Translations under genes and position numbers: made by a program
In this document: piece after piece, positions 1 through 20,000 of the stretch
Position numbering within the stretch: position 1 is the first letter of the stretch
Layout of the letters: the number at the start of each line of letters is the position of its first letter
Assembly: GCA_048213135.1 (NCBI GenBank)
Contig: PS015081.1
Coordinates: 59,960-79,959, forward strand
Length of the DNA stretch: 20,000 bases
From: Reclinomonas americana ATCC 50394
Lineage: Eukaryota
Direction of reading: 5' to 3'
Notes under the pieces: model-generated
Database searches by the model: none
What the model saw: the letters and a program-made list of their open reading frames with translations, nothing else
Told to the model about the DNA's origin: nothing

Positions 1-2468
1 GCTCCGGTTCGCCTGCGCAACAAAATGAAACAAAGTGAGAATCAACGCAGAGCGAGTGGCAGTGAGAACTGCGACGCACGCACCATCGCCGGTGAATGGC
101 AGCTGCCGAATCACGTCGAAAGCAATGATGAGCAGATTGACGGTGTCGGGGAACTTGGAGCACGTCTCCAGCATGCAGTACAGTGCACCGCGTCGCAGCA
201 GCACTTGCGGTGCGCCCTCTGATACAAAAACGCGAACAGAGTGTGAGAATCATGTGTTAGGGAAGGGTGATTCACCTGCAGTGGCAGAGCGCAACTCCTG
301 TCACACAGACGCTGTACTTGGGCCACGGCGGCCGTAGCCTCGTCCGCCAATCGACAGGCCGCCACTCGTCGCAACAAATCGTCGACTGGACTCTCGTCCG
401 ACCACAACACTGTGCGCACCACATGTGAATCAGACGGGAGAGAAAAGAGAAACGCGACGTTTATGACAACAACAACAACAACGAACAGTTGGAGGACATG
501 ACCGACTCCCAGTAGTGCGCCATCTATGAAGGTTCCCTCGTCAGCTACGACCGAGAAAGGAGAGGACGCACGAGCAGTGCCGACAGACCTCGCGTTCGTG
601 ATGCACATTGGCTTCCACGAACGAGGCCAACGCCGAGGTAATGTCGGCCACGCGCATCTTCTCGAATCTGTCGAGCTCCGGCGCAATGCTGGTGCGCACC
701 TGATCCACTCGCTCACGCGCCGTGTTCACTTGGTTCGCCAGCTAAGGTGCCCACACATAAGTCACCTGCGCTTATTATTGAGAAGAGATGGCAGTGACAG
801 ACCTTGTTAATGTCGGCATCCAGCCGGGTGACGGTCTTGCTGCCGGGTGCGGCCGCCGTCGCCAAGCCATCGCGCTTGACGTTCTTTTCTTGCAGCCGAC
901 GGCTGTCGAGGTCCACTTCGATCTGCATCTCCTCCGCGCGCTTCAGGTACAACTGTGCGCGCCCTTCAAAGTGAGTATCCCACGGTCGTGGATGCAAATG
1001 CAGCATGGCACATACCGCTGCCGCCTTGGCACTGCGCGACGCAAAGTCCATGTAGTCCAGCAGAGTCTCCTCCTCAAAGGCCTGCGACAAGGTGTGAGGA
1101 CGCGGGTCGGACACTCCCACTCGACGACACGCAGCGGCGCACCATGTTCATCTCGCGGTCACCCCACGTGGTGCACATGATTGCCAGGTCGCGCATGGCC
1201 AGAGCAATACGACCGTTGCCCTCGTTCGTGGACGGTGGTGCGAAACGAATGCCAGCCATTTCGCGGTTGGCCAGCTGTCGACACTCACCCAGTCAGCTTT
1301 CACGAATAAAACAGCATCAATAGAAGCAGAGAGCGCAACTCCTGAAAAGTGCTCGCCGATCTGAGTGACGGTCTGCCCGAGAGCTGTGCGTTGTCGACAG
1401 CAGTAAGGATCTCTCACCAAAAACCCACCTCAATCACAGTCGGCACTCACCCTTGCGAGTGTGCGTGTATTCGCGAGCCGCATCGACTGAACGTGAGTAG
1501 GCCGACTGCAGCTTGAGCAGGTTGTCACGGAACGCAGCCTGCAGTGGAGAGTGTGAGCGCGGCAGTCAACATTCCCACCACACTTTGCATCCCGCAACAT
1601 TGGAGGCCGCCAACTCCTTCTCCTCCTTGGACTTGCGACGGAAAAAGTTGCGCAGCGAGCTCATGATGGAGTCCTTCAGCGACTTGCGGTACACCTTGAC
1701 TTCCTCCACCGACAGGGCACAAATGTCCTCGTATTCCTGCGCACGTACGAGAGCGAATGAGCGATTGCATGTGTACGAGTCAAGGCGATCGACGCACCTT
1801 GTCCCAGGCGCTGAGGAACTTCAAAAAGTACTTGGAGCGACACAGTTCGGGAATGGCGGCGACCTTGGAGAGGAACAGCTGCAGCGCACGAGTGCGGTAC
1901 GAGTCAAAGTCGCGCACACTCAGTTGTTCTGTCGATGGCGGGCACGGATGAGTGCTGAGCGGGTGAACGCACACACAAGAGCAGACACACACACACCAAA
2001 GATATCCGAGTCCGGCAGCGGCGGCACAATGATGTGCACGTGCAGCTCGACCAGCGTGTCGTACACTGAAAAGCAGTCAGACACAACACTCTTGACAAAA
2101 CAAAGACGACAAGTCGCCTGCAACGCACGCCAACGAAAGTCGCTGAAGCGGCGGAACACAGTGAACTCCTTCAGAATGCCAAACGCATCCGAGTTGGTCT
2201 GCGCACATGTGTGAGCGACTGACAACTCCTTCCTACGCAGACAGCGACTGACCTTGGTCTTCACATTGTAGTACCACGTGTTGGAGAACGAGTTGAACTC
2301 GTGCTCAATGTTGAACTCAAAGTACACCTCCTCGGGCTGGGGTGTGCGAGGGATGAGTGAGAGAGAGAGTGATGCGAATCCATTGTGTGACTGACCGGGT
2401 CCTCATCGCTGATTGCTGAGCCTCCATGCACTCCGGATCCTGTTGCGGCACTCTACGCACACATGCAA

Positions 2469-2499
<31 letters not shown>

Positions 2500-2699
2500 C
2501 AAGCAAGCGCGGGAGATGAGCGCAATGCGAGCTCATGTCTGTTTTCGTCACAGCACACAGAAAGGGAGACACACGAGCAGTCACAGGCAATGCCTGTCTC
2601 TCACTCACATACACACACGCACGCCTGTGGAGAGAGAGAGAGACAGACACAGAGACAAGTGACACATTGAGTGCGACTGATGCACACCCCACGCACCAT
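1..2699 (-). CDS. PX-BAR sorting nexin (SNX-BAR family) with extra C-terminal helical extension; 3' end lies outside the window
   Basis: Modelled exons (- strand): 2699-2697 (ATG only, tentative), 2452-2396, 2336-2253, 2198-2129, 2065-1997, 1928-1798, 1736-1599, 1538-1451, 1383-1340, 1274-1143, 1081-1016, 952-803, 741-589, 523-487, 409-296, 218-84, 12-1. PX motifs: WYYNVKTK...FTVFRRFSDFRWLYDTL...IVPPLP...RTRALQLFL. BAR helices: ALGQTVTQIGEHFSGLANRE and ELDRFEKMRVADITSALASFVEANVHHEREMAHYWE. All junctions are GT-AG and frame-consistent. Confidence 0.88.
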
Positions 2700-2814
2700 G
2701 ATGTCGTGAGATGACTTGCACTCTCACTCACTCGCGCGATATAGCACACAACGCTCTTTCTCTCTTTTCCTCAAAGAAGCAAGATCGTCTTCGTCGCTGT
2801 GGGACAACTCGTAT

Positions 2815-4112
2815 TCACTGTCGACTTTGCACGGAACACAAAAAGCACAGCGACTGGGCATCCTCGCAGATGAAGCAGCGAAGGACTCGCAGCGGGAGTG
2901 GCTCTCCCTCGTCGACATCGTCGTCTTCGCGAGCGTGCAATTCGGCGAGAGCTTCGAGAGCTTGACGTATGCAGGCCAGTTCGCGATTCAGCAGGCGCAG
3001 TGCACTCCATGGACCTGCCAGTCGATGTTAACGCTATGGCAACTACCCAGTACTGCGTCGCCGTTGCGTACCTGTTGGCCACGTGAGGAAAGAGCCGGCG
3101 ACGTCGGTCGTCTCCTTGTACGAATACAGCGAAGGTGACCCGGGCTTCATCACAAACATCGTGCGATGGTACGTCCACGCGACGACCCGCAACGTGCTCA
3201 CTAGTGTGGCGCTTCTGGCGTGCCACACGCGGATGGATCCATCTGCGCGCAAGCGTTCACTCGTCAACGCAAAGCGGCAGAGCAGGCTTCCCTCACCCCG
3301 CACTCACCAAAGGACGAGCTGACAAAGAAGGCGCTGTCGTTCGTGAACGCCACATCCGCGACGCCCAGCTCGTGCTGACTGGTAGACGCCAGCAGGCGTA
3401 CGTCGCTCTCCAGCAACGCCCACACAAACAAGTGACCGGTGGGGTGACCGGTCACCAGCAGAGTCTCGTCGGGCGAGCATGCAGCGCATGTCAGCGAGTA
3501 CTGCATGGGCGGCGACTGCCACGACTGCAGCGTCTGCGTATCCCACCACTCCACGTCCGACGCCCGCATCACCAGCAGCAGCTGTCGATCCCCGTTCTCC
3601 AGCACCCTCAGAGGCGTGGCCGCCGTCGACTTCGGAAACACATTCAAACACTGCCCATCATCCGCACGCCACATGCGCACCGCCTCAGTGTGGGCGCTCG
3701 TGAACAGCAACTGCCCGTCTCTCGACGCCACCATACTCGTCACCAGTCGCGTGTGCCCCTCCCGCTGCCACACCACACGCCGAGTCGCCACCTCCCACAT
3801 AATCACCTGTCCAGGCACCTGTCGCCCATACCTGTACTGCACGCCATCCGCACTGCACAAGAGCGTTCCACCGCGCAGAAACAGCATGGCTGTCACGGGG
3901 TTGAGGTGCGCTTGCAACTCATGAACTGTGCGCATCTCCTCCTCCTCCTCCTTCTCCTCTATGAGATACACTGTGCGATCGCCAGCACCTATCGCGACCC
4001 ACGTGTCGCACACTGCCATGGAGCACACACCGTTCACTGTCGGCTCCCCCAGACTCACTTGCACATGCGGGTAGTGCGCGGCCGCAATCGCCTTCACTGT
4101 TGCTGTTCTCAT
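2815..4112 (-). CDS. WD40 repeat (beta-propeller) protein, about 391 aa
   Basis: Exons 4112-3308, 3242-3072 and 3014-2815 total 1176 nt and stay in frame. WD40-like units: LQAHLNPVTAMLF, REGHTRLVTSMVASRDGQLLFTSAHTEAVRMW, CSPDETLLVTGHPTGHLFVW. Splicing intron 3307-3243 completes FVSSSF/DGSIRVW. The last exon is less certain. Confidence 0.8.
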
Positions 4113-4177
4113 CGCGGAAGAGTGGAGAGATCTGTTGATTGGCAGTCTCTCTTGTCTTCTTCTTCTCTCTCTTTCCA
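4113..4177. promoter_or_regulatory. Putative bidirectional promoter between the divergent WD40 and S1P lyase start codons
   Basis: Only 65 bp separate the two ATGs. The spacer contains CGGAAG (4115-4120), an inverted CCAAT box (ATTGG, 4138-4142) and a CT-rich tract. Promoter function is inferred from gene geometry only. Confidence 0.5.
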
Positions 4178-6095
4178 ATGAGCGCTCTGCTGTGGATTGA
4201 GCACGCGATTGTGGCCGCGCTTGTGCTGTGGGCCATCAAGCAAGTGTACACCAAAGGTACGACGAGAACGCGAGCGAGAAAGAGAGTGAGAGTGTGTGCA
4301 TTGTCTGAGCAACACACACACAGGTCCTCGTGCGACCATTGGCAAGTTCCTTGTGCGCTTTGTGCGTGCCATCCCGTTTGCCGGAAACGCGATCAATGCA
4401 CAGCTCGGCTCTGAAGGTTTGCGCTTGTGTGACACTGTGCGTGCGTGCATGATCGTGTGACTGATTGCATGCATGCAGCGGAGAAAATGGTCGAGTCGAC
4501 CTTTGCGCAGATTGCCAAGCTGGAGCGGCTTCGTGCAGTGCCGCGACAGTCGTCGTCTGCGCAGGCAGTGCTGGGCAAGATCAATACGATGCGCGAGTGT
4601 GATAAGGATGCCTCGTGCGGGCGCACGTTTGCGTACACGTATGTGGTGTCGGAGGAGCATACGCACCTGCACAACGAGGTGACGGCCATGTATCAGCACT
4701 CGAATGCGCTCAATCCCATGGTGTTCAAGAGCCTGCGCAAGATGGAGACGGAGGTCGTGCGCATGGCGTGCACGATGTTGCATGGCGATGCGGATACGTG
4801 CGGTGTGATGACCACTGGCGGCAGTGAGAGTCTGGCCATGGCGATCAAGGCGTACAGGGATCGCGCGCGTGACACGGCGCCGCATATTGTCGAGCCAGAG
4901 ATCGTCATGTCCATTACTGCGCATCCGGCCATCGAGAAGGCCGCACACAACTTCAACATCAAGGTCACTTCTTCACTTGTGTGTCTCTTGCTTTTTGCGT
5001 GTACGTGGCTGACTGGCTGGAGGGCGTGTAGACCGTGTATGTGCCCATTGATCCGACGACATGCCAGCCACGCATCGACGACGTGCGTCGGGCCATCAAC
5101 CGCAACACGATTCTGGTGATTGGGTCGGCGCCGCAGTACCCACACGGCGTCATTGATCCGATTGAGGAGCTCGGCAAGCTGTGCGAGGAACATCGTCTGC
5201 CGCTGCATGTTGATGCGTGCGTCGGCGGCTTTGTGCTGCCATGGCTGGAGAAGCTCGGCTACGACATTCCGCTGTGGGATTTCCGCGTGCCGGCCGTCAC
5301 TTCCGTGTCACTCGACGCACACAAGGTGCTGCGATGTGGATGTGGCGAAGTCTGTTTGATATCCCTCACTCACTCGTGCGTTTATCATTTGTGCGGGGCG
5401 CAGTACGGCTACGCTGCCAAGGGTGCCTCGTGCATCCTGTACCGCTCCGACGAGTATCGCCAGTATCAGTTCTTTGTGTACGCCAACTGGCCCGGTGGTC
5501 TGTTCCTGTCCAGCACGCTGGTGGGCACCCGCGGTGGCCCCGGCATCGCATGCGCCTGGGCCACCATGGTCTCACTCGGCGAGGAGGGCTACATGGCGCT
5601 GGCCGATCGCGTCAAGAAGACGGCCGACAGCATGATGGACGAAGTGCGCCGGATCCCCGAGCTGCGCATCCTCGGCAAGCCGCACCTCACCGTCTTCTCC
5701 TTCACCTCGACTCCGGAATCCCGCCTCAACATTCTCTGCGTGGCCGACGAGATGGAGACGCGCGGGTGGACCATGGAGCGGCAGCAGAAGCCCGACTCGC
5801 TGCACTGCACCGTCACCCCACCGCACGCCAGCCGAGTGCAGGAGTTCGGCCGCGACTTGCGCGACTCGGTGGAGGCCGTGAAGCGCGATCCGGCCGCCGC
5901 TATGAAGAAGGGCTCGGCGGGAGCGTACGGTCTGCTGGCTAACATTCCCGGTGAGATCGAGAAGAAGAAGCACGTGGCGAATGTTGCGCTATGCAAACTC
6001 ACACAACAATCCCTTGCTCACACACACACACAGACGAGGCTGTCGCCGAGGACATGCTCCGCCAACTCTCCTGCAAGGTCTACAGCGACAAGTAA
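4178..6095 (+). CDS. SGPL1: Sphingosine-1-phosphate lyase (PLP-dependent), about 519 aa
   Basis: Exons 4178-4256, 4324-4416, 4479-4963, 5032-5325, 5404-5950, 6034-6095 (1560 nt). Hydrophobic N-terminal anchor. Family motifs: SNALNPMVFKSLRKMETEVVRM, MTTGGSES, TAHPAIEKAA, SAPQYPHGVIDPIEEL, LHVDACVGGF, DAHK/YGYAAKG (PLP lysine at the exon junction), WPGGLF. Confidence 0.95.
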
Positions 6096-6159
6096 ACATC
6101 AAAGAAGTCCTCCCAAAGTGTTGTCCCCGATCAGTCCCCCCACAGAGCACTCTCCTTCC

Positions 6160-7070
6160 ATGTCCGTGGACAAGGAGGATGCAGGGTGAGCACGGCGACA
6201 AGCACGAACACCCCTTGTGCACACACACTCACACGCACTCACTCACTGCAGGGCGGTCGCACGCTCGGGCTCCTACGCCGACACAGTCAGCAGATTGCGC
6301 GCAGCCAACAGTCGAGCACCGCCTCCACCACGCGGTAAGCACACACACACACACACACACACGTGTGTGCGAATGCATTGTGTGATGATGATGATGATTG
6401 TTATGTGATCTGTGCATGCAGCGGCGCATCGAACTCGACTGGCGTTTGTGCAGCCCGACGCTGGAGGCGCTCCGGACCCCGATGCCGCGCCTGTGTCACT
6501 GCCTCGCGCGCGGTCACAAGTGTCGACGAACAGCGGAGGCACTGGACTGCGTCGCAACATGTCCATGGGCGCAGTGGCCTCGGCGGCAGCAAATGGGAGT
6601 CTCGGATTGGGCGGTATGGCTGGAGGCTCGCATCCTGTTGCGTTGGTGCAGTGATGGGTGCAGGTGATGAGCCGCGCACTGAGAAAGTGCCTGCAGGATA
6701 TGACTGCGTTGAACAAGGAGGAGGAGGCCGAGTCGACCATGGAGCAGGCGTTGCTGGCTCCACGACGTTGCGCTGCTCCCGCACAGCTGGTGATGATGTG
6801 GGAGGGAAGTGATTGACGCTGTCTGTCTATCTATATGTGTGCAGCGGTGCCGAAACCTGAGAGCGAAGTCAGCACGGCAGTGACGATGCTGATTCACTCG
6901 GAGGATCTGAGTACGCACTCGTTGCTCATCAACCCCGATGTGTTCCCGCACCTGCGGTTACATAACATTGTGGAGCTCGGGTTCCCCAATGGACGGTCGG
7001 TGATGCTGCAGGTCACCACGATGCAGCGATTTCGAGGTGAGTCGAGAGGGTGACCAGGCAGAAGTTTATT

Positions 7071-7138
<68 letters not shown>

Positions 7139-10100
7139 TGTGTGTTCATAATGTCGTCGGTGCAGGCATCAACCAGCTCAGCGTGCACAAGAGTGTGGCC
7201 GACGCGTTTGGTGTGCGCGGTCGCATGGAGAATGTCACGGTGCGGGCGGTCGATCCGGAGATTGTCGGTCTCGACTTTATCGAGCTCTCGTTCAAGGAGC
7301 AATTCATATCGCGCTCCGACATGTGGCGCTTCATGCTGTACTTGCGAAACAAGTGCACGCATCGCACCAAGTTGTTTGTGTGGGCCGGCATGAGAGTTGC
7401 GTCGGCTTCTGCCTTTGCCTCTCTCCGCGTGGCGAGACTCACGCCCGTGCAGGCGCAAGTGGAGGAGCTGATGATGGATGGCACGGTGGTGGAGAGCGGC
7501 CTCATCACGCCGCACACCAAGGTCACGTTCCGCTCGCACTCGGCCAACTACATGTTCCTGTTCCAGATGAGCCGCGAAATGTGGCAGTATGCCGACGACG
7601 GTGATCTGCACTTTGAGAAGGCGGTGAATGGCTTCCTCAAAGAGGTGCACGATCGGTGGACGCGGTCGACCGCCTCGCATCACATGACGATTGTGTTTTG
7701 GTCGCGCTCATTCTTCTCCGAGGAGACGTTGCGTGCTGGAGCGAGTGTTGCGCCGCGAGAAAGAGTCGGCGGTTGGGCTGATGGTTGACTGTGCAGGGTG
7801 GCGGACATGCCGGAAGGAGAGCGCGCAGAGCTGTCCGAGGATGCATACGGGCGGCACTATCAGGACTTTTACAAGGTGGTGGTAGATCGGCAAGTGGTGC
7901 GCGAGTGGGACACTCTGCGGCGCGTCTTGAAGCACGAGTTCAATCAGTATCCGTCTCTGATTGGGTGGGATCCGCATGTATCGAAGGGTACGCACCTGCT
8001 TTCCGATGCTTTCTCTCTCTCATGTCGGTCACTCACTCTGCCACCTGCTGCCAGACGACCCGTTCTCGTCCACCATTGGCGAGAATTCAAACGCCGAAAA
8101 GGGCAATTTTCTTGAGGCACTGAACTTGACGCTGGACATTTTCGAGAGGGTGCGTGCCAGTGCAGCAGGAAAGGGTGCAGGTGTTCCAGGCGCGCTAACG
8201 CACACGTGTCTACACAGCATTACATCAATCGAGACCTGGCGCACACGGGCCAGTCGATTGTCATTGTCACCGCCGGTGTCGGCGTGTACGATGTGGATCG
8301 GTTACTGGCGCAGAGCACCAAGCGTCGCATGATCGACAATGGTATTGGATGCGATCTGGTGTGTATCTCGCAGGCCCCGCTGCATGCCGTCCCGCTGTTG
8401 CGGTACTCGGACGCGGAGTCATTGGTCTCCAGAACGCCGTTGAGTAGTAGTTGGTGTTGTTGATGTTGATGTGGCATTCGTGCAATGTTTGAGAGCTGGC
8501 AGCTTACTTCCTTCTGGCATTGCAGCAGCGACAGCCGGGTGGCGAGGTCGGCGTCGGCCAGTCGTGATCGAGAGGTTTCATCGTTTTGCTAGTGGCTGGA
8601 AAGTCTTGAGCTCACTTGACGTGTGTGCAGGGCTCGGTGTTCCACACGCCGCACTGGATGCGTATCTGCTTCTTCTCGTCCACCGTGTTCAACCCGCTGC
8701 CGCTGGATGCGAGGTTACAGGATATCTTTGTGCCACGCGCCCGCATGCCTGCTGCTCGAGGTGCGCATTGTGTGATGTGTGTGCACGCTGCCACGGAGCC
8801 GCTGACAGCTCCCACGCGCTGCTTCGCTCAGAGTACGCTTCGGAGCACGACGTCACCGGTGCCGGTGTTGGTGCCCCGCGTGCCGGCGACAGCATCATGC
8901 TGCCTTCATTCGTTGGTCTTGATGTGAGTGACGGCACAGGAAACAACGTGCATGCAGTATTACTCTGTTGTTGTTGACCATCCGCGCATACAGACTCTGA
9001 AGAAGGACGGCCGGTGGGACCACCAGATGTACGATGATTTCGTGTTCAGACCGGAGGCGTTTGGGAACGCCAGTGTTCCTTCCCCGCAGCAGAGTTGGGT
9101 TTTCCCTTGACGAGCATATTGTATTTGCTTTCTCACCTCTCTTTGCTTCGGGCAGGCATATCGCCCGTGCTGTATCGCTCTGGCAACTACGGCCGCAACG
9201 CACGCGTCCGGTCGTCCGGCGGCGCCAGTCCACCGCGAACGTTGCGACCGCCAACCTGCATCCCTCCCCATTCCCAGCCATTCACGGGCTTTTGTTTTTG
9301 CCACAGCACGGGCGGCATTCTGCGACACTCCTCCAGCAACTCGAGCCTGACGCAGCCCGACGGTCACAGCGACTGGGCGTCGGGTAGTGTCGGTGGTGTG
9401 CGCGGCGCAGGCAGCTCGATCACCACTGGCTCAGGGTCGGCCAACGATCGCAAATTCTCCGGCCTGACGCTCGCCCTGATGCGAGCGGGTGAGTCGGGAA
9501 TGCCGTCAGAGGCCCCCGATGCGATGGATGCTGGTGCAGTGGACGAGGATGGTGCAGCGCCGTGGCCGTTCTACTCGACAGAGGACGGCTCGGCCATGCC
9601 GCCGCCTCCAGTCCGCTCGTCGGTCGACCGTGATGCGCGCCGCGGACGGAGTGGATCCGTCAGCGGGCAGCCGCAGTTGCTGCAGCCGAGTGCCTCTGCC
9701 ATGCCCGCCAATGCACGATTCAACAGCACTGGCGGAAGTAGCATCACGCGGCGTGACCACATTCCCATTCGCCCCTCCATAACACCGGGCTCGTCGCCTC
9801 TTGCCGGCTCACCACTCAGTTTCAGTGGAGTGCACGACGATCCGCTGCGCCGGTCCGCCACCTCGGCACTATCCAACACCCGCATTGCTGCGGTGACTGC
9901 CAATGTGGTCAATCGTGCGTGACCTTCCATGCACAGAGGGAAGCACGCTGCTCGTTGCTCACATCCGTCTCGGTGTTGCAGCTTTTGTGGGTGCCAAGAA
10001 AGGCAGTCGCCGCAATGCCGGCTCGTCACGACCGCCACTTGCCGGCTCCACGCACTCGCACAGCGCAGTAAGCAGTCCGACCACCACACCACCACCCGAG

Positions 10101-13100
10101 AGCAACTGTTGCGTCATTTTCTTCCACCAGCGATGCAATCTCCATCTCGCTTATGATGTTTACTCGATACGTACAGCTCCACACTCGCAGACGGGCGACA
10201 TCCTGGCACCCATTCCCGAGACCGAAATGCTCACCGGCAGTGTTGACGATCGAGGCAGCATGAACGCCACGGTGTGTAAGGAGCGACCACAATCTCGTAC
10301 ACACTGATGCTAACTGCACATGTGCAGAGCCTGCTGCGGAGCGGACCGTCCCTGATGCCGGTCACTGTGCAACGAACGTTGCGATTCCTTGTCGTAGTTT
10401 GTCTCCCGCCCATGTGTAACACCCCGTGTCGTTTTGTCTGCGCAGCCTGAGCTTGCGAACCGCCAGTGAGCACTATGTGCAAATCTCGCCGAACACTCCG
10501 CCGCTGGTCGGTGGAGCGCCGTTGCATGAGGAAGGTTTGGCAAGCGCACTTGCGATGGATCTTGAGAAAACTATGTGGACTGACCGTGTCGTCTCTCCAG
10601 CGGACACCACCGACACCAGCATGTGCTCGCGCAAGGGTGGAGCGGTGACGTTTGAGTCGATGCCCTTTACTCCAGTGTCTCCGTCTGTTGCGTGCGCTGT
10701 GCTTGGCGGCCTCGCTGTTCGCGCCACTGAGTTTCTTGTCGTGCGCAGCAGGGCGAAGAAGGCAAGGAGGTGTACAATCCCTTCCAGTTCGACGATGCCC
10801 ACTCTCGCCGATCGTCCAGCAGCCGTCGTCGATGGTGCCACTTGTTCCCGTACCTCGATCGCGGTGAGTTGTGTGCTTGATGTACAGCGTGGTGAGCTTG
10901 CTTGCTTATAAGGGAGTGTGTTCGTTGGTGCAGCGGCGCTGGAGTCGTACGTGCCCAACTGGAAGTCGCTTAGTCAGCCTGCTGTGCTGCCAGTGACCAC
11001 GGAATTCCATCCGGACAAGCGTGAACTGTTGCGTGCCCCTTCCCATACCCGTGCTTATCGAGATCTCTTCCCCCTCACATGTGTCACGACAGCGACGAAA
11101 AGTACACTCGCTTCGGTTACGCGCTCACCGCTGTGGAGACGCCGTACCAGGAGAAGCCGTACACACTGCTGCTGGAGCTGGCCTGCCAACGCTTGCAGCA
11201 AGGGTACCAGGTGTTCTTGACGGACAAGATGTCGCCGAATGAGATGATGCAGGTGCACCTGAGCATGGGACCGCACTGCCAGACGATTGCACTCGACAGC
11301 AACAAGCAGGACATTTCTGTGACGGTGAGTGAGTGAGTGCGCCGCGTGTATGGGCGGAGATCAAAGCTGGCACCGCCGCTCATTTTCTCTCTCCGTCCCA
11401 CTCGCAGCGGTACGATCTGATCCGCGACCCACTGCCACCACCGAGACCATACCGCTACCGACTGTGGGCCTCGGAGGAAGATCGTTTCTGCATGAAGGAG
11501 GTGGTGTTTGGGAGGAGCGAGGATCTGTCGCATCACTGGAACTACATGGACCAGCTGGTGAGCGGCAACAACGACTTTTTCACCGACACCCTCAAGTACC
11601 GCCGCCTCAAGTACGTCATGCTCCCCACCGAGGTGCGAAGTGGACGTGTGACGTNNNNNNNNNNNNNNNNNNNNAGAGAGAGAGAGAGAGTCAAGATAGT
11701 GTGTTCTCACATTGTGTCGCGCAGTTTGTGGATGTTCTCAGCGGCACCATGTCGCGCGCCGAAATCGAGGCGCTGGCCGACAAGCGTGAAAAGAACTTCA
11801 AGCGTGTGGAAGGCTCCTTCACCAAGATCACTGTCAAGCCGGCTCCGGATCAGGACCCGATTGCCATCAACTACGATCGGCACATGGATGTCGACTGGGA
11901 GATGCTGCTGCGGAGTGCCGATGGTTTGTGTCGTCTTGAGAAAGGGAAAAGAGGGCGTGAACTCACACCCACTGTCGTGCAGTGTCGATGGAGAAGAAAC
12001 GCTCGTTTGGCTATCACTTGAAGAAGCGCGTCAAGTTGTCGGTGACCACGTATCGCACCGAGCGTGAAGAATGGCTGGTTCGTCTCACAAAGCAGCCGGT
12101 GCCGTGTCAGTGTGCTAACTGAGAGCTGTGCGTCCAGATTCTGCGCTACGACAGCGTGTTCAACCCGATGAACGCCTGCTACATTGTGTCGTTCGACTGG
12201 TCGGTGTGCGGCAGCGCTGTCGACGAGTACGTTCAGTTTATCAGCCGCCGCGCCAAGACCAACGGCTTCAACATGCTACCGATTCCGCACGAGAAGGATG
12301 TTCGCATTTTCGACACGCTGCATCACTACGCGTCGCTGAATTACTCGCCGGAAATCATGCTGGTGGCGTTGCGGGCATTGGTGACCGACCAGTTCCAGGT
12401 GAGGAATGAGAGTCGCGATGGGAGAAATGCAGGCATGAGATAACTGATCTGCCGGCGTTTTTTTTTCAATCAGTTCTATCCCGAGTCGATTCCCGTCCCC
12501 GGCGGCGGTGGCACCTGGTTCATTCATCACACGGGCGTGGCCATTGTGCAGCTGTCTGACAACAGCATGCTGTGGTTCGTGCCTGTTTGTGCGTAGATAA
12601 GAGATGTTGCATGCGACTAAAAACGTGGCACAGGTTCCGCAACCCGCTGGTCGCATCGAGCACCACCGAGTTCTTGCCGCTGCTGAACCGCTTCCGCGTG
12701 TTCTGCGATGCAGAGGCACCGGCCATTGCCGCTCGCATGCAGGAGCCGCCGATGCAGGTGTCTCCGTCGTCGCATGTGGGACCGACGAGGAGTGAGCCAC
12801 CGGGCGCGGCACAGGCAGGGATGGCGGCGGCTGGCGGTGCTGCTGGTGCCGCGGCGGGAGGCATGTCGCGGATGAGTTTCGGCAGCCCAGAAGACCACGG
12901 GACGACCATGCTGATGTACTCGCGCTCGGCTCCGTACTTGCTGGCCGACCTCGGCGGCTTGCGACACGAACACGACGGCGGCGACGATGAGGAAGCGGCG
13001 CACAGCAGCGGCGCGGAAGACGATTTGGACGCCAGTAGCTCACGCACGATTCCCAGCGGTGTCGAGGGACACCCGCACGCGCTGTCCTTTACGTCGGACT

Positions 13101-13114
13101 CGTCGGGCTTGTAG
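6160..13114 (+). CDS. DEPDC5: GATOR1/SEACIT subunit DEPDC5/IML1, about 1644 aa, 30 modelled exons
   Basis: Exons 6160-6185, 6252-6334, 6422-6636, 6697-6766, 6845-7036, 7166-7395, 7453-7727, 7797-7987, 8055-8149, 8218-8438, 8526-8574, 8631-8760, 8832-8911, 8958 (or 8994)-9093, 9156-9240, 9307-9914, 9982-10107, 10177-10271, 10328-10377, 10446-10534, 10601-10686, 10749-10863, 10934-11027, 11093-11324, 11408-11632, 11725-11923, 11983-12077, 12138-12398, 12474-12574, 12634-13114 (4935 nt, one frame). Recognised motifs: [24 protein letters not shown]...[88 protein letters not shown]. The low-complexity N-terminal exons are less certain. Confidence 0.93.
7074..7135. repeat. (GT)n microsatellite inside DEPDC5 intron 7037-7165
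   Basis: About 30 uninterrupted GT units. Confidence 0.95.
11655..11674. other. Assembly gap (20 N) inside a DEPDC5 intron, next to an (AG)n tract
   Basis: Run of N. The flanking exons join in frame (MLPTE/FVDVL). Confidence 0.95.
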
Positions 13115-13316
13115 TGTATTTAGAGCGGGAGAAAAGAGAGAGAGTACAACACGGAGAAATATGTTTTGTTTACTCGCTACTTGCGCTTCTGCGGCGCGCG
13201 GTCTTCGTCACCGGCACGCAACGCCGCCACAAACGTGCGCACAAGTCGCACAAACATCAACACAACCACCACCAGCGCCACGAACAGGAGCAAGTCGAGC
13301 CACGACATGGTTCTTA

Positions 13317-14532
13317 TTACACGGGCGAGGTCCACAGCTGCGGGGCCGGCGAGCGGCAGTAGTAAAAGTCGGTGACGCGCGACGACGGGCGCGGCGACAC
13401 GGGGCTTGCAGGTGACGACGACCTGTACGAGAGCGGGCTGGCGTCGTACGACGACGACGACGATGACGGCGACGAGATGGGCGAGCTCAGCAGCTTCACA
13501 GTCACGGGCGGGAGACCCTCCAGAATGCGCAGCACGTTCTGCCGATGGAAAGCCAGCGATGAGGAAGAAGAAGAAGAAGGGGGATGGGAGGGGAAGGGAA
13601 GCATCGAGTTGAACCTCGAGGCAGCAGTCAGTGCCGAGCAGCTGTGAAGCGCACAGTCAATCAACAGGCTGGTGAGCGACCGATAGAAGCAACAGACCTC
13701 GTGCTTGAGCGTCGTCTGCAGCACCAAAGAAGCAAATGAGTGCACCGTCAGGGGAGGGAAAGGAGCGACACGAAAGGCGGCTCACCTGGTGATACACGCG
13801 GAACTCGGGAACCTACAACGCGCACAAGGTAAGATCATACAAACATGACTGCATATCATGACGCGCGCAACGTCAAAGACACCAAAGGCCTACGACAAGA
13901 GCCCACAGTGAGCCACACACACACACACACACAAGCACAACACAGCAAAGAAGAACGCACCTTGACCCAGAGGTTCTTTCGTCCACAAAAAAGAGCGCGC
14001 AATGATGATGATGGAATGAGACAAAAAAAGTCGAAGGAAAAATGCACATCACAAGCAGCAGCAGACCGTCTCTTCAGACTCGTGCACGTCGACCTGCACA
14101 AGCGCACACTGCATAAGAACAAGCACTACACTCTCTCTCTCTCTCTCTCTCACCACAATGAACTGGCAACGCGGATAGAGCTTCGCCAGCGAGTCAAACT
14201 CAGAGCGCAAAAACAGACGCGTCGGTGCCACCCTTGGCACAAACACCACCAAAATCAGCACCAAAACACGATGAGAACAGCACGAAAAAGCGCAGACGAA
14301 ACAGCGACGAGTGGAAGAGCACAAACGCCCAATCGCGATGACCAAGCGCCGTCAGAAACTCGAGATAAGCAGGCGGACTAACAGAGAGGGAAGCATCAGT
14401 GTCTCTTGCACACACACATACACGCACACACACATACACACAAACACACACACACACACACACACATACACACATACACACACACACACACGCAACACGT
14501 AGGCACGGCCAGTGTCAAGCTCAGTCTCCATT
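13317..14532 (-). CDS. Thioredoxin-fold protein lacking the CXXC motif, with an S/P-rich tail; microexon gene, 5' end probably in the gap
   Basis: Exons 14532-14497, 14377-14303, 14232-14154, 14093-14067, 13975-13961, 13889-13872, 13812-13786, 13715-13698, 13641-13615, 13538-13317, all GT-AG. Spliced product: METELDTGRAYVPPAYLEFLTALGHRDWAFVLFHSSLVAPTRLFLRSEFDSLAKLYPRCQFIVVDVHESEETNLWVKAFGVFDVPEFRVYHQTTLKHELLGTDCCLENVLRILEGLPP...WTSPV*. This follows the thioredoxin pattern (LAKxYP-x-F-x-VDV; GV-xx-VP-x-F; ELxG). Confidence 0.8.
14409..14491. repeat. Imperfect (CA)n microsatellite in an intron of the thioredoxin-like gene
   Basis: CA units interrupted by occasional TA, CG and AA. Confidence 0.9.
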
Positions 14533-14568
14533 CTTTTTTGTTGCAAATGGAGTCAGAGGCAACGAATG

Positions 14569-15249
14569 NNNNNNNNNNNNNNNNNNNNNNNNNNNNNNNN
14601 NNNNNNNNNNNNNNNNNNNNNNNNNNNNNNNNNNNNNNNNNNNNNNNNNNNNNNNNNNNNNNNNNNNNNNNNNNNNNNNNNNNNNNNNNNNNNNNNNNNN
14701 NNNNNNNNNNNNNNNNNNNNNNNNNNNNNNNNNNNNNNNNNNNNNNNNNNNNNNNNNNNNNNNNNNNNNNNNNNNNNNNNNNNNNNNNNNNNNNNNNNNN
14801 NNNNNNNNNNNNNNNNNNNNNNNNNNNNNNNNNNNNNNNNNNNNNNNNNNNNNNNNNNNNNNNNNNNNNNNNNNNNNNNNNNNNNNNNNNNNNNNNNNNN
14901 NNNNNNNNNNNNNNNNNNNNNNNNNNNNNNNNNNNNNNNNNNNNNNNNNNNNNNNNNNNNNNNNNNNNNNNNNNNNNNNNNNNNNNNNNNNNNNNNNNNN
15001 NNNNNNNNNNNNNNNNNNNNNNNNNNNNNNNNNNNNNNNNNNNNNNNNNNNNNNNNNNNNNNNNNNNNNNNNNNNNNNNNNNNNNNNNNNNNNNNNNNNN
15101 NNNNNNNNNNNNNNNNNNNNNNNNNNNNNNNNNNNNNNNNNNNNNNNNNNNNNNNNNNNNNNNNNNNNNNNNNNNNNNNNNNNNNNNNNNNNNNNNNNNN
15201 NNNNNNNNNNNNNNNNNNNNNNNNNNNNNNNNNNNNNNNNNNNNNNNNN
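14569..15249. other. Assembly gap (681 N)
   Basis: Run of N between two divergent genes whose 5' ends are missing. Confidence 0.95.
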
Positions 15250-15287
15250 GATCACGAGGAGCTCATCCCGTCTGTGTGTTTTCGCAG

Positions 15288-18200
15288 CGAAACCAACCTC
15301 AAGCTGAAGCGGAGCGTCAGCAGCACGTACCAGATGCGGGACACGCTCAGTGTCTACCAGTCCATGCGCGGCGTCATCAACTGTGAGACGCCGAACAAGG
15401 ACCTGCGCGAGTTCCACGGTGTCTTCGAGTCGAACTTGCGCTCTGTGCCGCTGCACTTGGAGAACCTGCTGTTGCGCGGCAGCACGGTGAAGAACACCGA
15501 GTGGGCCATTGGCGTGGTCGTGTACACGGGACACGACTCGAAAATCATGCGCAACATGACCGACCCGAAGCACAAGCAGAGCCAGGTTTGTTCACTTTCG
15601 TCGTACCGGCTGCGTGTGCGTCTTGTCACTGACTGCGCGCGGCATCGGCGGCAGGTGGAGCAACTGACCAACCGGTGCATCCTCATCCTGTTCCTTGTTC
15701 AAATCGGCCTCTGTTTGTTGTGTGCCGTGGGCATTGGTTTCTGGACCGTTGCGTGCATGTCGCACGGTATTCTCTTTGTGCACACGCGCGTGTGTCTCAT
15801 ACTGTTGCGAGCAGGAGCATGGCGAGTACACGGCGTGGTACATTTACGCTTCGAGACGTCCGTCGCCGACCACGCAGGGTCTCGTCGGCTTCTTCACCTT
15901 CCTCATCCTGTTCAACAACCTGATTCCCATCTCGCTGTACGTGTCGATGGAGATTGTCAAGTTTGCACAAGCGGTGGCTATTCGCCTGGACAAGGGCATG
16001 CATTACGAGCAAGTACAGGCCGACGGAACTCGCGTCACGACGCCAGCCGAACCGAGAACGTCGGCGCTGAACGAGGAACTCGGTCAGGTGCGTTCGTGTG
16101 TGTCACGCACCCGTCTACCCGTAGTGCATGCTGAGTTGTGCGACTGGCACAGGTCACGTATGTGTTTTCCGACAAGACGGGCACCTTGACGTGCAACCAG
16201 ATGAAGCTGCTCAAGTTTGCCGTTCCGGGTGCCAGCTACGAGCTGTACCCATCGCTGGTACTTCTGTCTCCCTGTCTCTGTCTCTCTCTCACGCACACAC
16301 TGCGTGTCTCACTGTGTGACCACGTGACCTGCAGCAACCGGGTGACATTCATCCGCTGCGTTCGGAGCTGGAAAACGTCAACTCGCCAGCGTACCAGCAG
16401 ATTCGCGAATTCTTCACGTGCATCAACCTGTGCAACACTGTCGTGCCTGAAGGAGGCTCGGCCATGACCACGGACGGTTGCGTTCGCGTGACTTGACTGC
16501 CGTATGCGCCCGCGCCTCTCTCAATTGGTATACCCCTTTTTGCAGCCATTCAATACCAGTCGGCGTCGCCCGACGAGGAGGCGTTGGTCAAGGGTGCCCG
16601 CGAACTCGGCTTTGCGTTGCTGGTTACGTGGAAGCTCGGCTGTGATGACCGTAGTGGCCGCGGTCGGTGGAGCTCACATGTCGAGTGTATTTTCTTGTGC
16701 AGTCGCGCACGCCGAGGTCGTTGACGCTGTTGGACACACGAACAGGCGAAGTGGTCGAGTTCACCATTGAGCACATTTTGGAGTTCACCAGCGATCGGCG
16801 CATGATGTCGGTCATTGTCAATGTCAATGGCGAGTGGTATTCACTCTCCGCTCAGCCTTAGCACGTCGTTGCTCATTTCTCTGTTTGTGTCACAGGTATT
16901 CGCGTGCTCTTTGCGAAGGGTGCAGACACGGTCATGCGAGAAAAGTCGGTGGAGGCCGCGATGGCTCACGAGAGTCACGAGCTGCACGACACGCTGGAGT
17001 ACCGCCTCAAGGTGATGTCTCCTCCGCCATCGTTGTCGTCCCTTGTGCTGTGGCTGACTCGAGGTGTCCTCGTGCAGGACTACGGCGAGGCCGGGTTGCG
17101 CACGCTGGTGTTTGCACGGCGCGAGTTGAGCGAGCAAGAGTACGGCGAGTTTGCGACCTTGTATCTGCAGGCGTGCTCCACGGTCGATCATCCCGCTCGC
17201 CGCGCCGAACTGGTGTGTGCAGCAGTGCTGTCCTTTTTTTTTTGCTGGCTTTGCTGACCTTGATGTTCGCCGTGTAGATGGCGGAGGCGTACAACTTGGT
17301 GGAGCAGCAGCTGTCCATGTTGGGCGTGTCGGGCATTGAAGATCGCCTGCAGGACGGCGTGTCGGAAACGCTGCAGACGCTGCATGCTGCGGGCATGCGA
17401 GTGTGGATGCTCACGGGCGACAAGCAGGAGACCGCCATCAATGTCGGCTACAGCTGCAAGTTGCTGAACAACGACATGCGCATGATCAAAGTTGCGTGCC
17501 ACTGTCGCACTGAAGGCCACACACACACACACAAAAGTCATTTGTTGATGTGAGCACACACACACACACACATAGTTTACCGAGCACTTGTCGAGATTTG
17601 GCGATCGGCAAGCTGCACAGTTCTATCGCGACATGGGCAGCGCGCTGTCGCAGGTGCAAGCCGAGGTGATTCACGGCAAACACGAGCGAGCGATGCAAGG
17701 AGATGATGACGAAGAACTGGGCGAGTTCGACACGAACCTCGACGACATTGCGATTGTGCTCGACGGCGATGCGTTGGAGATGGCACTGCAGCCGGAGCAG
17801 CGCATGTCGTTCTTGGAGTTGACGATTCGTGCCAAGGCCGTCATCTGCTGCCGTGTGTCGCCCAAGCAGAAGGCGGATGTGGTCAAGCTGATTCGTGAGA
17901 CCCTCGGTGCGGTCACGCTGGCCATTGGCGACGGCGGCAACGACTGTGCCATGATTCAGGCCGCCAATGTCGGTGCGTGGACATGTGATTGGATCATTCA
18001 GTGGAGTGCGCGATGCTCACTATGTGGGATACGTGTGCAGGCATTGGCATCAGCGGCAATGAGGGCATGCAAGCGGCGCGGTCCAGCGACTATTCCATCT
18101 CGCAGTTCCGGTACGCTGACGTGGCACGCTTGTTTGATCGGTGTCACTCCCACCCGTACTCATTCATTCATGGTGGGTTGGGCAGGTTCTTACAAAGGCT

Positions 18201-19355
18201 GCTGCTGGTGCACGGTCGCATGTCGTACAGGCGAATCTCCAAGCTCATTCTCTACTGCTTCTACAAGAACATTGCGTTGTACATGACGCAGTTCTGGTTT
18301 GTGCTGATGAACGGCTTCTCGGGCACGGTTTGTCGGCGTGGTGTGTAAAAATGATTGCACTGCGTGCTGACCATGTGCGACATGCAGAGTCTGTACGACA
18401 ACTGGACCCTGTCGATGTACAACATGCTGTTCACCTCCTGGCCAGTGCTGCTGTTTGCCGTCCTCGATGTCGACATGACACTGGACGATCAGCCGCAGCG
18501 CGATGTGCCGACCAAGCGCCTCAAATTCGCTCAAGTGTACAAGCTTGGACCGAAACACTACTACGTTGCGCTCCGTGCATGCTTGTGTGTTGCATCGTCT
18601 TGTGGCTTACTCATTCTTCTTTGTGCGCGCGTGCAGTTTACGACCAGTGCCTTCCTGGGCTACATCATGAACGCGTTCTGGCATTCGCTGCTGTGTATGG
18701 GCGCGGTGATGCTGGCCTTCCGCGGCACGGTCGGCTTCCAAGACGGTCGCAACGCCGATCTGTACATCATGGGCACTCTGGTGTACGCGCTGGTGATCGT
18801 GGTGGTCACCTTCAAGCTGGCACTGGAGACCAAGCTGTACAGCGTCGTGTCGATGCTGATTATTGTGCTCAGCATCGGCTCCTTCTTCGGCTTCATCTTC
18901 CTGGTCCAGTACCACTTGCAGTGGTCGCGCTCGACACTTTTCTACGAGATGACCGGGGTGGCCAACGACTTGTTCTCCAACTTTGTCGCCCCACTGGTCA
19001 TTCTGCTGGTGGTGGCGACGTGTCTCAGCCGCGATTTTGCCTGGCTGGCGGTGCGCTGGTTGTTCAGACCAACACTCCTGCACCGACTGCGCCTGCAGCA
19101 GGTGGAAGAAGATGACGACGACGGCAGCAAGGCGATGCGCGAGATACCAGACGCCGAGACGCGCGGCATGTCACCGACACAACGTTGCGTCTGCGTGCGT
19201 GTGTTGAGGCACCAAACCGCTCACTTACCCATCTCCCCCTCGCAGACAAGGGCTTTGCGTTCGTGGCACCCGAGCCGGGCTACAGTCAGATCTTGTTCTC
19301 CGACGAGGCGGCTCAGACGCGGAGAGAATCGCCAGCGTCACGCGATCGACCATAA
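15288..19355 (+). CDS. P4-type ATPase phospholipid flippase, Drs2/ATP8A-like; N-terminus lies in the gap
   Basis: Exons 15288-15585, 15655-15747, 15815-16087, 16153-16257, 16335-16476, 16546-16622, 16703-16829, 16896-17011, 17078-17212, 17278-17490, 17576-17972, 18041-18110, 18186-18327, 18388-18564, 18637-19183, 19246-19355. Motifs: [31 protein letters not shown] (phospho-Asp), [71 protein letters not shown], and a C-terminal GFAF. Confidence 0.95.
16830..16895 (+). other. GC-AG intron in the P4-ATPase gene
   Basis: G|GCGAGT...CACAG|GT is the only donor I found that keeps MSVIVNVN in frame with [11 protein letters not shown]. Confidence 0.7.
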
Positions 19356-19662: not shown

Positions 19663-19903
19663 TCGCTTGCATGCATGCGTATTGTTCCTCGCACTTTGAT
19701 CACACTTATGAATTTCCCTCCCCCCCCACTCCCAGGTGGTCCCTCGTGCACCAACTTGGAGACCTTCGAGGCTGCAAGAAGCGCTGGCGAGGAGGCACTT
19801 GTGTCGCTGGCCTATGACACGTTTTCGTCAATTGATTCGCTGTCACGGTCGTTCCTCACACGAGGTGCGCTGTTGGGTGGCGAGTCGGACCCGGAGACCT
19901 CTG
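19438..19903 (+). CDS. First two exons of an unidentified gene that continues beyond the window
   Basis: Exons 19438-19471 and 19736-19903 join in phase 1 to give MSDDVHMEDVAGGPSCTNLETFEAARSAGEEALVSLAYDTFSSIDSLSRSFLTRGALLGGESDPETS, followed by the donor G|GTGAGC. Confidence 0.55.
19608..19662. repeat. Compound (CT)n-(CA)n microsatellite, intronic
   Basis: A CT tract directly followed by a CA tract. Confidence 0.85.
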
Positions 19904-19909
19904 GTGAGC

Positions 19910-19913
<4 letters not shown>

Positions 19914-20000
<87 letters not shown>
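19914..20000. repeat. (AG)n microsatellite running to the window edge
   Basis: More than 40 uninterrupted AG units. Confidence 0.95.

Follow-up and report, generated by a model that had tools for sequence, protein, structure and literature searches.

How is an intron recognized when its first bases lack the G that other introns carry at the fifth position? The question is raised by a 20,000-nucleotide stretch of DNA from Reclinomonas americana ATCC 50394 (contig PS015081.1, positions 59,960 to 79,959), here called the window and numbered from its first base, in which many introns begin with the hexamer GTTGCG. The window is a gene-dense, very intron-rich eukaryotic stretch with a G+C content of about 58% (two N gaps excluded); it contains six genes with several exons each, plus the beginning of a seventh, and has about 5 introns for every kb that codes for protein. 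The results below indicate that GTTGCG and its close relatives constitute a second class of 5' splice site (donor), that the base preferences of this class largely copy those of the standard donors one base further along, and that the class may be read in a register shifted by one base.

The hexamer GTTGCG at intron starts

Donor statistics were based on 71 introns compiled by coordinate from gene models. A second intron of a WD40 gene, a thioredoxin-like gene's regions around 14066 and 13697, and the two introns of the last, partial gene were left out of this set because their placement was uncertain; the left-out donors at 14066 and 13697 are standard-looking, and both are preceded by G. An earlier note on this DNA had listed 19 GTTGCG donors, 14 on the plus strand and 5 on the minus strand, together with three shifted relatives, GTTGAGT (8439), GTTACGT (16623), and GTTTCGT (14302), and all of these sites were found to be present. 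GTTGCG was the commonest donor hexamer, opening 19 of the 71 introns, and the runner-up, GTGCGT, opened 8; when related words were joined to GTTGCG, the number rose to 23 of 71. A model with independent donor positions predicts 1.17 GTTGCG donors among 71 introns, and base composition given GT predicts 0.36, so that independent positions, which the earlier note had named as a possible explanation of the word, do not explain its abundance.

The excess was not a general property of the window. Both strands together held 39 copies of GTTGCG, compared with 22.5 +/- 4.9 in dinucleotide-preserving shuffles, none of 200 of which reached 39. Relative to the genes, 30 copies were in sense orientation and 9 in antisense orientation. 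The sense copies comprised the first six bases of 19 introns, 4 intron-internal copies, and 7 exonic copies, the last number being close to the antisense background. Since 19 of the 30 sense copies open modelled introns, the excess is confined to intron starts.

The exonic sense copies, which the gene models do not use as donors, were located at 8397, 12368, 15471, and 17095 on the plus strand and at 375, 3193, and 13222 on the minus strand. The word was followed by T in one of these seven copies (13222), compared with 11 of the 19 donor copies.

Two donor classes

The donors fell into a standard group, a GTTG class, and a small group of other GTT words. Positions are given relative to the splice site, with -1 as the last exon base and +1 as the first intron base. 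The 39 standard donors (GTR or GC) had G at -1 in 36 cases; G (28), A (6), or C (5) at +3; A (17), C (16), or T (6) at +4; G at +5 in 35 cases; T (25), C (7), A (4), or G (3) at +6; and an about even composition at +7. The GTTG class contained 21 donors (19 GTTGCG, one GTTGAG, and one GTTGGG), with C (9), T (6), A (5), or G (1) at -1; T at +3 and G at +4 in all 21; C at +5 in 19; G at +6 in all 21; and T (13), C (5), A (2), or G (1) at +7. The 11 other GTT donors (GTTTGT, GTTCGT, and the like) had G at -1 in 9 cases; T at +3 in all 11; T (7), C (3), or A (1) at +4; G at +5 in 8 cases; T (6), G (3), A (1), or C (1) at +6; and T (5), C (3), or G (3) at +7.

These counts bear out three features that had been ascribed to the class. 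The last exon base was not G in 18 of the 19 GTTGCG donors, the exception being the donor at 16477; donors outside the GTTG class mostly followed a G (45 of 50); and within the class the G at +5 was lost (1 of 21) and a G at +6 gained (21 of 21). The difference at -1, 1 of 21 GTTG donors with G versus 45 of 50 others, was highly significant (Fisher p = 4.5e-12) and persisted when the comparison was restricted to homology-backed introns (1 of 7 versus 16 of 16, p = 7e-5). T at +3 does not by itself cause the loss of G at -1, because donors of the GTTTGT and GTTCGT type keep the -1 G (9 of 11) along with the +5 G. It is the word GTTG, not T at +3, that accompanies the loss.

The class also differed in codon phase. 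Phase-2 introns made up 5 of 19 in the class versus 3 of 46 elsewhere (p = 0.04). In phase 2, the last exon base is the second base of a codon, where a G is costly. Phase 2 was nearly absent among standard donors (2 of 36).

Support for individual GTTG donors

Introns were placed by a protein-to-genome aligner that accepted any GT, or GC at a small penalty, as donor and any AG as acceptor, splice sites being otherwise unscored. Votes came from 45 of 47 homologues of 1000-1400 residues for a P4-ATPase gene and from 40 of 59 homologues of 1350-1900 residues for a DEPDC5/Iml1 gene. A gene finder guided by a position weight matrix served for coordinates only and was not counted as evidence. Eight donors were backed by homology in this way, all on the plus strand: GTTGCG at 7396, 7728, 11028, 15748, 16477, 17491, and 18565, and GTTACG at 16623.

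In the P4-ATPase gene, the intron at 16623-16702 (G|GTTACGT) was chosen by 43 of 45 homologues, and when 10 homologues were aligned without constraint, each of the 4 intron calls listed at this place spanned 80 bases. The intron at 18565-18636 (C|GTTGCGC) was chosen by 42 of 45. The donor of 15748-15814 (C|GTTGCGT) was used by at least 30 of 45, with the acceptor at 15811, 15814, 15817, or 15826. The intron at 16477-16545 (G|GTTGCGT), which has the sole GTTGCG donor preceded by G, received 21 of 45 votes, and another 18 homologues took a frame-equivalent GC donor 3 bases downstream. The intron at 17491-17575 (A|GTTGCGT) was chosen by 13 of 45, its rivals receiving 3-4 votes per donor-acceptor pair; the acceptor was 17575 or 17620, and read-through meets a stop. 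The four AG acceptors of the 15748 intron, spaced by multiples of three, received 6, 9, 5, and 10 of 45 votes, and tandem acceptor use is possible there.

In DEPDC5, the 57-base intron at 7396-7452 (A|GTTGCGT) was chosen by 30 of 40 homologues. Because it is in frame and stop-free, the read-through translation could be searched directly, and against it human DEPDC5 (PDB 6ces and others) showed an exact gap of 19 residues, corresponding to the 57 bases from GTTGCG to CAG. The introns at 11028-11092 (T|GTTGCGT) and 7728-7796 (C|GTTGCGT) were chosen by 28 and 18 of 40 homologues, respectively, rivals of the latter receiving 3 votes per donor-acceptor pair. If retained, the 7396-7452 intron would add 19 residues to DEPDC5 with the frame kept.

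The aligner showed no tendency of its own toward the word: run on 11 unrelated metagenome P4-ATPase loci with at most 56% identity, it returned 71 donors, mostly GTAAGT-like, and no GTTGCG. Alignment without any splice-site rule gave correct intron places and lengths, with boundaries drifting by up to about 20 bases. Donor-blind ab initio chaining of exons by codon usage was too coarse, merging or skipping exons.

A further 11 GTTGCG donors lie in unconserved regions and are placed by reading frame. Six of these belong to the open-frame chain of the DEPDC5 model (plus strand), in introns at 6637-6696 (T|GTTGCGT; no homology vote), 6767-6844 (C|GTTGCGC; alternative G|GTGATG 23 bases downstream), 9241-9306 (C|GTTGCGA), 10108-10176 (T|GTTGCGT; frame-compatible A|GTAAGC 40 bases upstream), 10378-10445 (C|GTTGCGA), and 10687-10748 (T|GTTGCGT). 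The stretch RRRWCHLFP, said by the earlier note to follow the 10687 donor in frame, does so in the next exon. Three belong to a sorting-nexin-like gene on the minus strand: 219-295 (A|GTTGCGC), which is ambiguous; 1275-1339 (A|GTTGCGC), with an open-frame chain and an alternative G|GTGAGT 51 bases downstream; and 1539-1598 (T|GTTGCGG), with an open-frame chain and a read-through that reaches a stop. A Pfam search of the sorting-nexin exon pieces matched the last BAR exon alone and provided no check of 1598 or 1339. The remaining two, in the thioredoxin-like gene on the minus strand, come from manual reading, as does the T|GTTTCGT donor of the same gene (14233-14302). The intron at 13813-13871 (C|GTTGCGC) is preceded by an 18-base exon, and its joining yields the spacing G-x-x-x-(I/V)-P, which we take to be that of the thioredoxin motif; in the intron at 14378-14496 (T|GTTGCGT), the word is followed by a GT repeat, and the upstream exon enters an N gap.

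The last GTTGCG donor, that of the P4-ATPase intron at 19184-19245 (C|GTTGCGT, plus strand), received no homologue vote. It had been credited with restoring a GFAF motif, and it does bring the motif in frame; a C|GTGCGT located 11 bases further downstream, joined to a matching acceptor, would do likewise. A G[FY][AS]F motif occurs in the last fifth of the protein in 40 of 85 long P4-ATPase homologues.

The two class members with other words lie in DEPDC5 on the plus strand. A|GTTGGGT (9094-9155), absent from the earlier list, belongs to the open-frame chain and has only 4 frame-compatible donors within 60 bases. C|GTTGAGT (8439-8525) is followed by a 49-base exon, and the frame requires it together with the intron at 8575-8630; homology votes do not back this donor, 11 of 40 homologues choosing 8425-8630 instead. 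After the 49-base exon (8526-8574) comes a weak donor, G|GTTTCA, which is a poor fit to either class.

Overall, the introns and the two-class structure, with the homology-backed donors as their core, are very probably real, and support for the frame-only donors is weaker than that for the homology-backed ones.

Correspondence of the two classes after a shift of one base

When the GTTG class was moved by one base against the standard donors, most positions came to match. The class bases at +4 (G in 21 of 21), +6 (G in 21 of 21), and +7 (T 13, C 5, A 2, G 1) follow the preferences seen at +3, +5, and +6 of the standard donors, and the class +7 differs from the standard +7. The correspondence extends into the exon: the class -1 is like the standard -2 (chi-square p = 0.34) and unlike the standard -1 (p = 1e-10), and T is absent from the class -2 (0 of 21), as it nearly is from the standard -3 (3 of 50), unlike the standard -2 (13 of 50, p = 0.007). 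Both classes can be put as one rule, in which the donor reader would want G-K-U-G-C-G-U and the cut would fall before the first GU in the word.

U1 pairing and the choice between readings

Donors were folded by nearest-neighbour modelling against the canonical 5' terminus of the U1 snRNA (small nuclear RNA) and against hypothetical U1 5' ends. With the canonical end, standard donors had a mean of -6.8 kcal/mol, and 39 of 39 paired in the normal register. A hypothetical end matched to the standard donor (G-C at positions 5-6) gave -6.4 kcal/mol for the GTTG class and placed G+1 opposite C9, as in a shift, in 11 of 21 donors and opposite C8, as in a bulge, in 2 of 21. A hypothetical end fully complementary to the class word gave -11.5 kcal/mol for the class.

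The shifted register emerges as the best explanation of these data, one that we hold with slightly better than even confidence. Several observations weigh against it. With the canonical U1 end, the class mean was only -1.2 kcal/mol, and the shifted register was predicted for 1 of 21 donors, the GTTGAG donor at 8439. The match of the classes is imperfect at the class +5 (C in 19 of 21, versus A 17, C 16, and T 6 at the standard +4), and the class -3 resembles the standard -3, not the standard -4 (p = 0.005). Thecamonas and Mamiellales share C at +4, and only a standard U1 is reported for them in the available part of a comparative study (10.1101/2022.06.08.495308). The classes were defined in one 20-kb window with 6 genes, and the introns are known from sequence alone, through gene models and homologue alignment. 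Each of the 11 frame-only GTTGCG donors has 4-23 other frame-compatible GT or GC donors within 60 bases. The site at 295 is ambiguous: the earlier note had held that the normal-looking donor at 275 gives a poorer frame, and this did not hold up: when joined to the acceptor at 217, G|GTGAAT at 275 keeps the frame as well, so that 295-219 and 275-217 both give an open frame.

Because GUUGCG hardly pairs with canonical U1 whatever the register, the prediction is that U1 has changed or that an additional one exists. We infer that U1 is the reader and that its 5' end is non-canonical at positions 5-6 or that a second U1 is present. The earlier proposal, which rested on the shifted register of human U1, is upheld in one part, in that the base statistics fit a one-base shift, and is not supported in another, in that the human mechanism with canonical U1 is not transferable as such, the predicted pairing of the class being almost nil. 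The changed or additional U1 predicted here corresponds to the second option of the earlier note, a variant snRNA.

The second rigid donor word, H|GUUGCGU, differs from the standard G|GUGCGU in having U in place of the second G. Under the shifted register, U1 snRNA would sit on the seven bases in its usual position, with G+1 filling the slot of the exon G-1 and U+2 forming a single mismatch in the shifted U1 helix. Since the only GU starts one base earlier, cleavage would move one base upstream of its usual place within the helix. The last exon base would be freed from the requirement for G, and class donors could therefore sit in any codon phase.

The strongest rival is a second U1-type snRNA dedicated to this class, or else one U1 fully complementary to GUUGCGU, with the standard donors then read by mismatch or by another U1. 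The invariance of the word (19 identical hexamers, with G at +4 in 21 of 21, C at +5 in 19 of 21, and G at +6 in 21 of 21) speaks for it, as do the near absence of pairing with canonical U1 and the -11.5 kcal/mol reached by the complementary end; the pyrimidine found at -1 in 15 of 21 class donors could mean one extra pair with such a U1, and Entamoeba and Mastigamoeba provide cases of U1 ends that have co-evolved (10.1101/2022.06.08.495308). Set against this, an Rfam search, limited to the window, found no snRNA gene, a single standard U1 is reported for Thecamonas and Mamiellales (10.1101/2022.06.08.495308), and a single reader accounts more simply for a close copy of the standard preferences displaced by one base. 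We regard this rival as unlikely. Equally doubtful is the wider proposal that the major spliceosome here has two 5' splice-site systems, the usual U1 and a second U1-type snRNA or factor for GUUGCGU donors; if true, the two together would deal with about 30% of all introns and would allow introns behind any exon-end base.

A bulged register accounts for the intronic positions as well as the shift does. GU[U]GCGU would be the standard GUGCGU with an extra U looped out of the helix with U1, and later of that with U6, and G+1 and U+2 would pair as usual; such an arrangement would hold the later U6 pairing in step, and the +2/+3 and +3 bulge registers have been validated at human sites (PMC4856993). 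The exon side speaks against it. A bulge leaves C9 of U1 free and so predicts that G is favoured at -1, and it was seen in 1 of 21 donors, below the 23% G at -6 to -4 and significantly below a 30% background (binomial p = 0.006). Folding against the matched U1 end likewise yielded the shift far more often than the bulge. The depletion of -1 G and the exon-side correspondence therefore favour the shift, and a bulge appears rather improbable.

If the true donors lay elsewhere, GTTGCG might simply be frequent near intron starts, for example as an intronic enhancer. Such an artefact of modelling draws on the sequence-only basis of the introns, the many frame-compatible donors in unconserved regions, and the standard-looking alternatives at 295, 19184, 1339, and 10108. 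It is very improbable given that seven GTTGCG donors and the GTTACG donor were fixed by homology without donor scoring, one of them to the residue, that the aligner produced no GTTGCG donor in the control loci, and that the word is overrepresented only as the opening six bases of introns.

Branch sites, acceptors, and intron bodies

Downstream of the donor, introns of the GTTG class were like the others. The median length was 67 bases in the class and 67 in the standard group. A YTNAY branch motif was found in 17 of 21 class introns versus 36 of 39 standard introns, at a median of 18 versus 19 bases from the 3' end, and the class motifs (CTCAC, CTTAC, and TTGAC) are the same as in other introns. 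The acceptor was CAG in 18 of 21 versus 34 of 39, and all 23 listed introns had a GT 5' end and an AG 3' end. On these sequence features, the class is best read as major-type GT-AG spliceosomal introns.

U12-type introns are marked by RTATCCTT as their 5' word and by a branch site resembling TCCTTAAC. After the donor and acceptor were trimmed, a 9-mer was shared by just 8 of 210 class pairs, compared with 39 of 741 standard pairs; BLAST matches between trimmed introns were GT/CA microsatellites only, and no target-site duplication was seen at the listed exon ends. Mobile introns (introners) or U12-type introns with a common 5' end, either of which would be expected to leave about a quarter of introns with the same rigid 5' word, were therefore rejected as scarcely credible, since the 3' halves match those of other introns and the bodies share no sequence: introners for want of body similarity beyond microsatellites and of duplicated exon ends, and U12-type introns because the donor word is unlike their consensus and the branch sites and acceptors are as in other introns. 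Long GT/CA and GA microsatellites occur both within introns and between genes (7075-7135, 14400-14490, 19895-20000, and others).

Comparison with described donors

In the human shifted register (Roca and Krainer 2009, as described in Tan et al. 2016, PMC4856993), the U1 pairs slide by one position and G+1 replaces the -1 G. Like those human sites, nearly all class donors lack the -1 G and the +5 G, and cleavage is still placed at the GU. The human sites are rare exceptions read by canonical U1 (PMC4856993); here, the word is the commonest donor and canonical U1 is predicted not to hold it. The words also differ, GUUGCGU here and GUUAAGU in human. Tan et al. tabulated tens of human sites for the +2/+3 and +3 bulge registers, which resemble the class in having an extra U after GU followed by a normal +3 to +6 word; unlike the class, with its 1 of 21, they keep the -1 G paired (PMC4856993). 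T|GTTAAGT, the human-type shifted word, occurred as one predicted donor in the P4-ATPase locus of a metagenome contig (L011) from an unrelated AT-rich eukaryote.

Donors that depart from GURAGU by T at +3 or C at +4, with a changed U1 end that restores pairing, are known from Entamoeba (donor GUUUGU, U1 AACAAAC) and Mastigamoeba (donor GUGCGC, U1 ACGUAC) (Roy and Bowser 2022, 10.1101/2022.06.08.495308). The standard donors of the window (GTGCGT, GTACGC, and GTTTGT) resemble these words. Those genomes have one dominant word in the normal register, whereas the window has two coexisting classes one base apart. Mamiellales and Thecamonas combine GYGCGY donors with an ACTGAC-type branch site, much like the standard G|GTGCGT and the branch motif near the acceptor here; their genomes are treated as intron-poor, with the GTTGCG class unmentioned in the available part of the source (10.1101/2022.06.08.495308), and the window is intron-rich. 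U12-type introns offer a further parallel, as a second class with a rigid 5' word beside the major class; they differ in having another 5' word and another branch site, while the 3' halves here are the same as in the major class.

A term search of Roy and Bowser (10.1101/2022.06.08.495308) found no mention of GUUG, shifted, or bulge. Some protists, including Thecamonas, have many annotated introns termed "non-canonical," for which the available part of Olthof et al. 2024 (PMC11347168) gives no detail. Literature matches to the donor motif were, among those listed, primers and unrelated sequences only, supplementary donor tables being outside the scope of the search; nor did anything matching come from searching the apusomonad genome literature or from the available passages of the genome papers on Andalucia and Acanthamoeba. 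On what could be checked, an abundant donor class behaving like the standard donor moved by one base has no earlier description.

For U1, the shifted register is an accepted mode at a few atypical human sites and is usually seen as a curiosity. If the shifted register applies here, U1 binding register and cleavage site would be routinely uncoupled in about 3 in 10 introns, which would provide a natural system for how U6 and U5 then locate the GU. It would also explain how introns can stand behind non-G bases and in phase 2 despite the strict -1 G of the other donors. In practical terms, about a third of the introns here would be called wrongly by gene finders that had learned from GTRNGT donors.

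Gene content of the window and minor observations

The genes of the window comprise the PX-BAR sorting-nexin-like gene (1-2430, minus strand, 15-intron model); a WD40 gene (minus strand); a sphingosine-1-phosphate lyase gene (4178-6095, plus strand); DEPDC5/Iml1 (6160-13114, plus strand; a 29-intron model whose 1636 codons include no internal stop); the small thioredoxin-like gene (about 13300-14570, minus strand), which runs into an N gap; and the P4-ATPase gene (15287-19355, plus strand), encoding a P4-type lipid flippase, whose 5' end lies inside an N gap. The nearest named homologues of the proteins were from Cavostelium, Diphylleia, dictyostelids, Willaertia, and chytrids, with roughly 40-60% identity in conserved exons. 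The Rfam scan of the window returned two matches, both at chance level.

The interval between DEPDC5 and the thioredoxin-like gene contains a short open frame without introns (13172-13303, minus strand), 43 codons long and including a hydrophobic stretch; nothing marks it as a gene. The thioredoxin-like gene itself has tiny exons (minus strand) at 13872-13889 (18 bases) and about 13961-13978 (about 15 bases). The P4-ATPase gene contains the only GC donor among the 71 introns, G|GCGAGT, in a GC-AG intron at 16830-16895 (plus strand) that received 35 of 45 homologue votes. At 5983-6038 (plus strand), within the sphingosine-1-phosphate lyase gene's last intron, there is an internal GTTGCG in frame with a nearby acceptor, a possible alternative donor that would add 11 residues.

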